A stretch of 64,000 bases of DNA from Leptonemataceae bacterium (GTDB lineage: Bacteria > Spirochaetota > Leptospiria > Leptospirales > Leptonemataceae), in the NCBI GenBank assembly GCA_965227295.1, contig OZ245742.1:4768001-4832000 (forward strand). Reading direction: 5' to 3'. The position numbers were made by a program, and so were the translations under genes. Below, in pieces: positions 17,254 to 20,200 of this stretch; within the stretch, counting starts at the first letter, position 1, and each line of letters begins with the position of its first letter. The notes under the pieces are model-generated. The model saw only the letters and a list, made by a program, of their open reading frames with translations. It was not told the DNA's origin and ran no database searches.

Positions 17254-20200
17254 TCAGCCTGCACGTAAATTCTCAGGCGTCTTCCGGAGCCTCCATTTAT
17301 AGAATGCGCGGAATTTCCGTACATCTCCCCTGAATCCTTTCGTGCCCCCTGGTTCGTATGCTGTAGAATTCGGATCAATAACGTTCAACTTGTAATTGTA
17401 GATCCAGTTATCCTGCGCACCGTGCTGAACCATGACCAGTCCGGGATCAATCGCCGCAGACAAGATTTTCGCGAATACCGGTTCAATCCTGCGATTGTTC
17501 ACCTGGCGGGCTTCTTTCTTACCGGGAATTCCGCCTTTATAGATGCCGTGCAAATCGTAATCGCTGAAGAAACCTGTTCGAGCATTCTCCTTATGACGAA
17601 CGAGATGCGGAGCCTGCTTGCTAACCCGGTAACCCTTTTTATAGAGATACATCTTCACAGCTTCATAGACTTGCTTCAACTGAGCGACGTTTACCTCGCC
17701 CGTCCCCTGGGTCTCCGTGGCAATGCGTTGCAGCTTTTTGTTCTCATTGAGCTGTTTCGGATTGGATAGATCCGTTACGCCGTCCACCACGGACTTCAGA
17801 AATCCGTCGGAACGCCCCGGAGGGGGCGGGAAAGCTACCAATCCGACCTTCCCTTTGGGCGTCGAAACTCCCTTCAAGATCTCCTCTTCCAGCTTGAGCG
17901 TTTTCATTTTCAAAACTTCAGGCTTGGACTGAAGCTTGTTGATTGTTTTCTTCGCCTTCAGGATCTTTTTATACGCAGCTTCATTCGAATCACGAAATAT
18001 GATTACATACTTGCGACTGGTGGCAAACTCCTGAATCTTCGCATCGTGCTCCTCCAGCATTCCGCGGGAGCGCGGTGCTCTGGCAGAACCGGTCGCTTCA
18101 TAGATTTTCTTCGCTTCTTCATCACTCATGCCCCGCCCCTCCGACGGGGCCATTACGATTTTAAGGGCCTTTACCAGCCGCGCGATATGGCGATCCAGCT
18201 CTCGGTTGATTTTCTTTTTCTCGGGGCCGTCCTTCTTTTTCGCATCCAGAGCCTTAAGGCGGCGTATAATCTCCTTCAAGCGAGCATCCAGTCGCTCCAT
18301 TATGTTCAATGCCTTCTCTATCCGCACCAACTGCCGCATGTCTTTTTCCGGAGGCGGCCCTTGCTTCATCAATTCTTCCCTGTTCTTGTTAAGATCCCTG
18401 CGGTTGACACTAATCAGCCCCTCCAGCAAAGTCTCTTTGCTTCGAACTGCGATCTTCTCTTTATTCTTAATAAAGACCTGATGTCGTTCCCCGTTCTTCG
18501 TCTTAAAGAACTTGCGTTTCTTCCACCATTGAACGAGGCTCTGCGTCCCCTGTTTCACTTTGCGTTTCGCTTTCTTAAACAGAAGGCGGGCCCGTTTCAC
18601 CACGCGTTTGATCACCTTATCAATCGCGCGGTGAATGGGTTTCCGAATCTTATCAATGACCTTGCGCACCTTGTTCGCGATGCCGCCCAGGCCGATGAAG
18701 CGCGCCAGAAACGACAGCATCACCGTCAGCGCACGGCCCATGGTCTGCTCGACGTAGTTCGCCGCCTGGCCGATGCGACCGTGCACGATGTTGTTCAGCG
18801 AGGCCATCACCGATTGAACCAGTTCCTTGATCTGCTGCCAGCGCTCGATGAAGAACATGATCGTATTGTAAACCGCGAGCACGGCCTGCACGATGGCGCC
18901 CGCCGGATTCAACAGCGAAGCGATCTTCGTAATCGCGAGGACGATGATGCGATTGCGCACCCAGGCGAGCACCTCGTTAATAACCATTTGTTTAATGTTA
19001 CCGACCTCGCCCTTGATGTGCTCCCACAGGCCGGCCGGGCCTTTGGTAATCAGGATCTGCACGATCTCAATGGACTTCTCCACGGCGGTCATGATCGCTT
19101 CGCCGCGACGGCCCAGGCGTTTCACGATCTTGCGGCGGATGTCCTGCCAGGTAATCTGTAGAATCTGCGCGACGAAATGAAAGATGGACGGCAGGTCGAA
19201 TGACGTCGGCAGATCGATGCCGGCCTTTGAGAACGTGCCGAAGAGCCAGCCGAAGAGCGCGCGCTTGAAATGCATGGCGAAATTGCGCATGAACTGCATG
19301 AAGCCGAGTTTCACCGCGCCGATGAGATTGCGACCGAAGCGCACCGGATCGTCGAAGATCTTACCCAGCACGCTGAACACGGGATTCAGGAAACGAAATA
19401 CCGGGCCCTCCTGGCCGCCGACCAGGCGCAGGAATCCCTTAAAGATGAATTCTTTGATCTTACCGCTCACGTCCCGGCCGAAGTTCAACAGCTTGCGCGC
19501 CGTAGGACCGAAGGTTTCTTTCAGAATGCGCAGGTTCGTCGACGGCAGGTTAAAAATCGAAAGATCGCTTGCCGCTTTTTCGAGCAGGGTTTTCACGAAC
19601 GGCCAGGTGATGTTCAGCTTCTGAATGCGATCCCACAACCAGTTGAACGCCGTCTGAATCACCCGGGCCCGTTTCAATCGTTCGAAGAGGATGCCGCCGC
19701 CGGGCACCATGCCCATGAGCGCGCCGATGAAGTTCACGGCGTTGCGCGGCACCTGTTTTCCGGTGACGGGATTAAAACCCAGGATGAACTTAATCAGCTT
19801 ATAACCGGGCACACCGTCTGCGATCTCGTCGACTTTCTTACGCAGCGATTCCGGCAGGAAGTCCAGAACCCGCCGCACCCGGGGCGCGGATCGGGAAATG
19901 CCGGCCGCCGGCTTGCGGCGTACGGATGCCTGCTTAGCATTCTCTGATCGAACATTAGCAACCTGACGCTGTCGCGCTCCGCCCTGCTGCACGACGTGAG
20001 TGAGTTCGTGGGCGATGAGTTTGCGCCCCGAACGCGTGGACGGCTGAAACTCGCCGTCCGCGAAAAAGACGTCGGCTCCGATCGTAAACGCTCGCGCTCC
20101 GAGGCGCCGCGAAATGCCGCTCGCTTCGCCGCCGGCATGAATGCGCACGGCACTGAAGTCCGCGCCGAAGCGATCCTCAAAATAACTCCGCGCGTCGTCG

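Follow-up and report, generated by a model that had tools for sequence, protein, structure and literature searches.

A predicted minimal class II nucleotidyl cyclase domain at the tip of a DUF4157 polymorphic cargo protein from a Leptonemataceae bacterium

The 64 kb stretch of Leptonemataceae bacterium DNA described here (contig OZ245742.1, hereafter the window) carries, at 17254..21018 on the minus strand, an effector gene coding for a protein of 1254 aa, which appears in the open reading frame (ORF) list and its translation as a single open frame without stops. From the N to the C terminus, this protein comprises a disordered N-terminal region, an eCIS_core (DUF4157) domain, eCIS standing for extracellular contractile injection system, an all-alpha carrier module, a Lys-rich linker and a C-terminal tip which, judged by sequence and predicted model, is a real, divergent and minimal class II nucleotidyl cyclase domain on a polymorphic DUF4157 cargo protein. 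The N-terminal region (aa 1-271; 20206..21018, on the minus strand like all features of the gene given below) is acidic and of low complexity, with S, T, G, P, A and Q making up 54% and D and E 18% of its composition. The eCIS_core domain (aa 272-348; 19975..20205), with a HELTH sequence as its HExxH motif, matches PF13699 with an E value of 2e-29 and 102 bits against a cut-off of 22. The carrier module, delimited by homologues, model and hydropathy, spans aa 351 to about 870 (18409..19968), and is followed by a variable, Lys/Arg-rich linker (aa 871-977; 18088..18408; K+R 27%) and by the tip of 277 residues (aa 978-1254; 17257..18087). Starting 13 nt downstream on the same strand lies the gene of a Pvc15-like AAA+ ATPase of 721 aa (15075..17240), which matches the PF22977 WHD (E 1.2e-30) and AAA (E 1.3e-33) families and whose D2 domain resembles p97/Cdc48.

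An earlier note on this DNA had read the interval 17254-18070, which corresponds to aa 984-1254 plus the stop codon, as a cyclase related to the anthrax toxin EF and to ExoY, on the basis of a series of motif strings. All of them are present in the order given there, namely GMLEEH (aa 986-991), IIFRDSN (1006-1012), SKPEVLKMKT (1031-1040, the phosphate-binding Lys loop, 17899..17928), SDYDL (1152-1156) and VQHGAQDN (1197-1204, 17407..17430). The core of the second string, FRDSN, covers aa 1008-1012 (17983..17997), and the fourth extends to SDYDLHG at aa 1152-1158 (17545..17565). Of the 8211 open frames in the genome that reach 200 aa, only the effector gene itself is matched by a loose, ordered regular expression (R..N / K-x6-K[ST] / D.D / HG, with spacers). 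The same expression matched 0, 1 and 1 frames in three residue-shuffled sets, so that about 0-1 matches per genome are expected by chance; hence the bare motif string does not exceed the chance expectation and is no evidence when taken alone. Together with the lack of a direct Pfam match to the tip, this count is what would be expected if the motifs were a chance match unrelated to the cyclase toxins. That explanation is refuted by profile and fold searches, which return nucleotidyl cyclase toxins only, with a wide gap to the next match, and it retains practically no probability. The motifs thus rise above chance because their residues are invariant columns of a family and because both kinds of search return class II cyclase toxins exclusively.

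The family was collected at several scales. A phmmer search with the tip against 1.84 billion cluster representatives gave just 23 other proteins at E<=0.001, a profile search of a 5.8-billion set gave 27 proteins at the same threshold, the query's own protein included, and a scan of 185,579 species genomes located 34 loci carrying related tips, in Planctomycetota/Phycisphaerae, Nitrospira, Omnitrophota, Acidobacteriota, Gemmatimonas, Pseudomonadota and others. The window tip and the domain delimited in 32 of these 34 loci make up a clean domain alignment of 33 sequences (A3), in which the motif residues R, K, K, K, D, D and H are each found in 33 of 33 sequences and the Thr/Ser position is likewise filled throughout (T in 31, S in 2). 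Searched against all PDB sequences, the A3 profile yielded 13 matches at E<=10, every one of them a class II nucleotidyl cyclase toxin: the ExoY proteins of Vibrio nigripulchritudo (Vn-ExoY, E 5.1e-6) and V. vulnificus (Vv-ExoY, E 2.9e-5), EF (E 0.0067), the ExoY of Pseudomonas aeruginosa (Pa-ExoY, E 0.91) and CyaA (E 1.1). A3 replaced two profiles built from full-length proteins, of which A1 was noisy (9 nucleotidyl cyclase toxins among 11 matches, best E 3e-5) and A2 reached a best E of merely 0.03. PF03497 (Anthrax_toxA) is matched at E<=0.1 by 10 of 47 tip-family members, more often than any other Pfam family, and its gathering cut-off of 25 bits is passed only by P0005 (25.9 bits) and its look-alike in L013 (25.5 bits). 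Since the window protein fails this cut-off, its tip was filed under the fold superfamily rather than under PF03497.

The closest relative of the window tip is P0003, a stand-alone protein of 260 aa that begins at the RGML motif (39% identity, E 1e-18), and in a midpoint-rooted FastTree tree the window tip groups with P0003 and P0006 on a long branch. P0003 is the kind of free toxin cassette with which polymorphic toxin systems recombine. The tip is single-copy in its own genome, which rules out a recent intragenomic duplicate. The domain is not always terminal: in L017, L024, L040 and L042 (ORFs of 1430-2098 aa from Omnitrophota, Thermodesulfovibrionia and Sulfurovum) it lies N-terminally or in mid-protein. 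Other long family proteins (P0038, P0040 and P0042) show Pfam matches only below the cut-off, to coiled-coil families.

The AlphaFold2 model of the tip, built with 47 sequences, is confident (predicted local distance difference test score, pLDDT, 83.4; predicted template modelling score, pTM, 0.82) and displays the two-lobed CA/CB catalytic fold of class II toxins. Foldseek against the PDB gave 23 matches at E<=0.001 and one at 1.0e-3, all of them EF, CyaA or ExoY chains, the next match having an E value of 1.1. The earlier note had named a predicted structure lacking the class II cyclase fold as one outcome that would count against it; the model does have this fold, and with profile and structure searches returning class II toxins only, and with the Lys loop and the His aligned to catalytic residues, its proposal of an EF/CyaA/ExoY-type domain is borne out. 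We regard homology of the tip fold to the class II cyclase toxins as practically assured.

Concerning the catalytic residues, the HMMER profile alignments to EF chains place R1009 on the Arg of EF 'FRPVN', which we take to be R329, a number in agreement with the printed alignment; it is Arg in 33 of 33 tips. The Lys loop aligns with 8bjj_B 'SSKGLFVKAKSS', so that K1032 corresponds to Vn-ExoY K528, Pa-ExoY K81 and EF K346, K1037 to Vn-ExoY K533 and Pa-ExoY K86 (EF has His351 there), K1039 to Vn-ExoY K535, Pa-ExoY K88 and EF K353, and T1040 to Vn-ExoY S536 and EF S354. The Lys-x6-Lys-Ser/Thr loop of class II toxins is therefore found in the tip, with K1032, K1039 and T1040 aligned in Vn-ExoY, Vv-ExoY and EF. 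Second, low-scoring HMMER segments place H1199 on the switch-B His (Vn-ExoY H753, Pa-ExoY H291, EF H577, CyaA H298), within 'VHHGADD' of Vn-ExoY and Vv-ExoY and 'NHGTE' of EF, and this His is also present in 33 of 33 tips. D1153 and D1155 form the single invariant D-x-D of the family (33/33), at the expected place in the motif order and, in the model, on a strand. They are the presumed metal-binding aspartates, an assignment based on this order and on the structural match of the domain as a whole; within SDYDLHG, the residues D, D, L, H and G are invariant in all 33 aligned tips. An ungapped extension aligns R1069 with Vn-ExoY K554, a column that is not conserved in A3. In excerpts of PMC10553838, K528 (Pa-ExoY K81) and H753 (Pa-ExoY H291) are described as essential in ExoY, and the ExoYs as carrying Lys where EF has His351.

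The tip is probably an active cyclase, as far as its sequence tells. The same fold might instead serve another chemistry, the tip being an NTP-binding nucleotidyltransferase, an NTP pyrophosphohydrolase or the maker of another nucleotide product. We know of no class II member with another chemistry, and the full residue set that matters in ExoY, EF and CyaA is invariant in the family, while the Lys found at the K1037 position is shared with active ExoY cyclases (K533 and K86; PMC10553838, in excerpt); a different product is accordingly improbable.

What sets the tip apart is its size. Taking ExoY spacings derived from the residue numbering of PMC10553838, the lid, from the Lys to the first Asp, measures 116 residues in the window tip, 54-116 (median 68) in the family, and about 132 and 126 in Vn-ExoY and Pa-ExoY; from Asp-x-Asp to His there are 44 residues, compared with 32-55 (median 33), 86 and 77; and after the His 55, compared with 55-72 (median 61), 110 and 87. 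The cofactor-binding switch A of class II toxins occupies 43-76 residues between Asp-x-Asp and His, and is said in excerpts of PMC10553838 to be decisive for cofactor specificity and to help position the base. In the window tip this region is some 33-42 residues shorter than in ExoYs, a shortfall approximately equal to the length of their switch A (43-53 residues), and the model shows there a 17-residue loop and one helix; hence switch A appears, by sequence, to be largely absent. Switch C may be partly present in the model, whose last aligned residues fall within switch C ranges (EF 653, Pa-ExoY 371, Vn-ExoY 854), yet only 55 residues follow the His.

Within its own family the window tip is an outlier, having the longest lid (an extra insertion, 116 residues versus the median of 68) and lacking the AGPNxGPQPP stretch. 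Both features, together with the long branch shared with P0003 and P0006, could be taken to indicate an inactive remnant or pseudo-enzyme, i.e. a decayed toxin cassette kept as a scaffold. However, the frame is open and without stops, every invariant family residue is retained and the tip model is confident, which makes such decay very unlikely.

The carrier module tells of tip exchange. Its model is all helices (pLDDT 73.8, pTM 0.39), hydropathy marks hydrophobic stretches at aa 427-445, 678-724 and 763-781, and Foldseek of this model, with a pTM of just 0.39, against the PDB gave 0 matches at E<=0.001. At least 474 proteins among 8000 scored candidates are carrier homologues at E<=0.001, and the homology, ending at a median residue of 848, mostly stops before the linker; among the 120 homologues listed, PF13699 occurs in 114 and PF13930 in 14, with other toxin-type Pfam entries at the ends. 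Two same-genus genomes, out of 30 relatives searched, hold orthologous carriers (46-52% identity) that match only residues 5-869 and 22-870 and end in different tips, GmrSD_C-like (E 2.9e-4) and Endonuclea_NS_2-like (E 2.1e-5), both below cut-off. In addition, the G+C content at third codon positions declines along the gene (carrier 0.72-0.76, linker 0.64, tip 0.59). As the carrier is widely shared, the orthologues diverge after about residue 870 and the third-position G+C content drops toward the tip, the sequence pattern reads as the signature of a polymorphic toxin whose tip has been swapped by recombination, with the conserved carrier and exchangeable C-terminal toxin typical of DUF4157 cargo. 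The other DUF4157-borne tip, P0020, occupies a different place in the tree, and between the two shared domains its carrier bears no relation to that of the window protein; therefore the fusion of DUF4157 and tip arose at least twice.

Regarding delivery, the genome (5.94 Mb, one contig) encodes three paralogues of the adjacent ATPase (35-40% identity), each next to genes for sheath, tube and Pvc16_N (at about 1.57, 2.80 and 5.72 Mb), while the effector gene lies at about 4.79 Mb. None of the 33 scanned ORFs of the window matched a sheath, tube, baseplate or spike family. Effector and ATPase are thus an orphan pair far from the particle genes. The description of the protein as an eCIS-type effector in the earlier note holds through its eCIS_core domain (E 2e-29), with the qualification that the gene is placed outside any eCIS operon, only the Pvc15-like ATPase adjoining. 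Both an eCIS_core domain with HExxH and a Pvc15/Alg15-type AAA+ loader, adjacent and in three paralogues, are available as in DUF4157 cargo systems, and the adjacent ATPase is likely a cargo loader/unfoldase. Excerpts of the literature place DUF4157 cargo in the tube lumen (PMC8894135), describe AlgoCIS loading as mediated by a disordered N-terminal domain and the AAA+ protein Alg15 (bioRxiv 10.64898/2026.05.27.728243), and have Pvc15 selecting payloads (PMC11495950). Because AlgoCIS cargo loading needs a disordered N-terminal domain, aa 1-271 likely constitute the loading signal of the effector. The genome holds 17 DUF4157 matches; five of them lie within about 8 kb (G000:C1:2465893-2473494), apart from sheath genes, and more cluster at 2.79-2.83 Mb around one eCIS locus, cargo genes of this type being unusually numerous in the genome.

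A real cyclase toxin could also be something other than eCIS cargo, forming a stand-alone export or processing module or using another route, for instance through a hydrophobic carrier that inserts itself into membranes. The lack of eCIS structural genes within 64 kb, the hydrophobic stretches and lack of a known fold in the carrier, the presence of the tip family on RHS proteins and other carriers, and the finding of DUF4157 in 0 of the 34 related loci by tblastn all fit such a route. Set against them are the eCIS-type loci of the genome, three in number and all accompanied by a separate paralogue of the adjacent ATPase, the strong eCIS specificity of DUF4157 (PMC8213781, in excerpt), and the carrier orthologues of two same-genus genomes, where a gene for such an ATPase likewise adjoins the carrier, divergently oriented and without other synteny. 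We consider a non-eCIS route rather unlikely, and delivery of the effector by an eCIS fairly likely.

Taken as a whole, the gene is best explained, with somewhat better than even confidence, as a polymorphic DUF4157-type eCIS cargo protein whose exchangeable C-terminal module belongs to the class II nucleotidyl cyclase toxins as a divergent and minimal member. Several observations pull the other way. The window tip alone (last 288 aa) finds nothing meaningful in Pfam, NCBIfam or PDB sequences (the last at E<=10), and PF03497 has no match in the window protein at E<=1 nor in the six-frame genome at E<=10. Sequence identity of the tip model to the solved toxins is only 14-17%. HMMER placed no residue-level alignment of the D-x-D stretch on the toxins' Asp-x-Asp (Vn-ExoY D665/D667, Pa-ExoY D212/D214), and the segments that place the His score about -2 to +2 bits, too low alone, their support coming from consistency across targets and from order. 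To these are added the loss of most of switch A and of AGPNxGPQPP, the distance of 0.93 Mb to the nearest eCIS locus and, as stated in excerpts of bioRxiv 10.64898/2026.05.27.728243, the dispensability of DUF4157 for AlgoCIS loading.

If the cargo explanation holds, the disordered N-terminal region would be recognised by the co-transcribed Pvc15-like ATPase, which would feed the protein into a tube belonging to one of the three eCIS particles that the genome encodes. After injection the tip would fold and convert NTPs into 3',5'-cyclic nucleotides and pyrophosphate by two-metal catalysis, with D1153, D1155 and H1199 presumably holding the metals and K1032, K1039 and T1040 the phosphates, as the alignment suggests. 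The target could be harmed by cyclic nucleotide (cNMP) overload, by NTP drain or by both. What the analysis shows directly is the fold and homology of the tip, the conservation of its catalytic residues, the modularity of the carrier and the order of the genes. By the proposed mechanism, the bacterium may poison other cells with cyclic nucleotides.

As for the target, no candidate immunity gene was found beside the effector gene of the window, and PVC-type toxins often come without immunity genes (Zhang et al., PMC3482391, in excerpt); these two facts favour a toxin that is silent until delivered and directed against distant organisms. However, a missing immunity gene is a poor guide to a silent toxin, because switch A is missing, the tip family also rides on RHS proteins and other carriers, and 10 of the 34 related loci have a possible immunity gene. 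In these ten (L014, L015, L016, L018, L021, L025, L028, L031, L037 and L039; e.g. L018:8721-9512) a conserved, Cys-rich gene of 264-278 aa directly follows the tip gene. Its product has 50 invariant columns and paired Cys motifs and looks cytoplasmic, with no signal peptide visible by eye; the L018 protein belongs to no Pfam family, found no useful lead in the Atlas and has no homologue encoded in the genome of the window. A role in immunity, or as an accessory protein, is possible. In other lineages, too, the tip is followed by small conserved genes particular to each lineage, and sister carriers bear nuclease-like tips. Should the downstream genes be immunity genes, the tip would be active inside bacteria. 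The suggestion of the earlier note that the toxin is possibly host-activated and has a eukaryotic target gains no support from these observations and is not contradicted by them. Activation of the tip by a eukaryote-specific factor is conceivable, and activity without any such factor is a tentative idea on which we would place slightly less trust. It should be noted that in loci with Ntox3-headed carriers of the same tip, the neighbours include a VgrG-like spike gene (Phage_GPD E 8.9e-73) or LysM/PG_binding_1 genes (L018:9620-11926; L020:4868-6286; L021:4594-5988; L028:2149-2772; L037:4862-5551), which hints that these carriers, too, are linked to machinery for contractile injection or for crossing the cell wall.

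A broader and more speculative explanation, which we hold to be doubtful, would make the tip a member of an undescribed clade of class II cyclases of about 220 aa, with no switch A, a short lid and no eukaryotic cofactor, spread as exchangeable modules on RHS, Ntox3-headed, DUF4157 and other carriers in environmental bacteria, with, in some lineages, a dedicated cytoplasmic immunity partner in the Cys-rich protein described above. Such cyclases would be the first of class II to be used by bacteria against bacteria, where cNMP overload or NTP drain would kill, and the window copy would be the one packaged for a contractile injection device.

In the surroundings of the gene, two short ORFs upstream (21304-21851, minus strand) resemble, by eye, the N-terminal (PGFIDYHTH) and C-terminal pieces of one amidohydrolase, and are probably a broken gene bordering the inserted module. 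At 7828-9858, on the plus strand, the window encodes a host class III adenylate/guanylate cyclase (Guanylate_cyc E 3.1e-51), therefore cyclic nucleotide signalling exists in the producer; this ORF overlaps a lactonase-like gene on the opposite strand, and its true start is probably later. A promoter and terminator scan gave signals no higher than the shuffled expectation, and an Rfam scan of 14000-23000 gave no match.

To our knowledge, every class II cyclase toxin studied (EF, CyaA and the ExoYs) comes from an animal pathogen and needs calmodulin or actin, bound to its switch regions, to leave its silent state. The catalytic core of these toxins recurs here as an exchangeable toxin module of far smaller size, carried by uncultured bacteria from many phyla. 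This would make it well suited for asking how small the catalytic unit of class II cyclases can be, and whether control by a cofactor is ancestral or a later addition. The cargo of contractile injection systems has so far consisted mostly of nucleases, proteases and ADP-ribosyltransferases, a list to which the tip would add a nucleotide-signalling toxin. In addition, the window provides an instance of an effector paired with a loader ATPase at a great distance from the genes of the particle.

A paper on a Serratia eCIS (PMC8528098) reportedly also mentions ExoY. In the texts covered by our literature search, no class II cyclase on a DUF4157 or Rhs carrier was found. Neither PMC8213781 nor PMC11297309 uses the word 'cyclase' in its main text, although their supplementary tables, outside the search, may list such a domain, and in the 300,000 characters of PMC3482391 that the search covered it refers only to ADP-ribosyl cyclase.

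Compared with the MARTX ExoYs of V. nigripulchritudo and V. vulnificus (PDB 8BJJ, 8BR1, 7P1H) and with P. aeruginosa ExoY (5XNW, 7P1G), the tip shows 15-17% identity, a shorter lid, 44 versus 77-86 residues from Asp-x-Asp to His and 55 versus 87-110 after the His, and no switch A of normal size; its carrier is a DUF4157 protein, not a type III secretion signal or a MARTX toxin. With the catalytic domains of EF and Bordetella CyaA (PDB 1K90, 1ZOT) identity is 14-17%, a Lys replaces EF His351, and the helical domain and a calmodulin-binding switch A of normal size are lacking, the tip having about 220-277 residues versus about 350 or more. Another close system, by description, is PAU_03337 of the Photorhabdus PVCpnf payload region (PMC6748792, in excerpt), likewise a putative class II cyclase encoded as eCIS cargo. 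This EF/ExoY-like gene lies in the payload region of its own eCIS operon, its activity being untested there, whereas the window gene belongs to an orphan module; the PVC cargos Pdp1 and Pnf are without DUF4157 according to excerpts of bioRxiv 10.64898/2026.05.27.728243, which are silent on PAU_03337. The overall layout is that of AlgoCIS Cgo1 and Cgo2 and of the eCIS toxins of Geller et al. (PMC8894135, PMC8213781 and PMC3482391, in excerpt), with a disordered N terminus, DUF4157, a long linker and a variable C-terminal toxin, and even the length is similar, Cgo2 having 1228 aa and the window protein 1254 aa. As here, these DUF4157 ('PVC-metallopeptidase') toxins usually have no adjacent immunity gene, and a Pvc15/Alg15-type ATPase is involved. 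From the DUF4157 toxins described in these excerpts, the window protein differs in its tip, a predicted class II cyclase, and in the position of its gene outside any eCIS operon.

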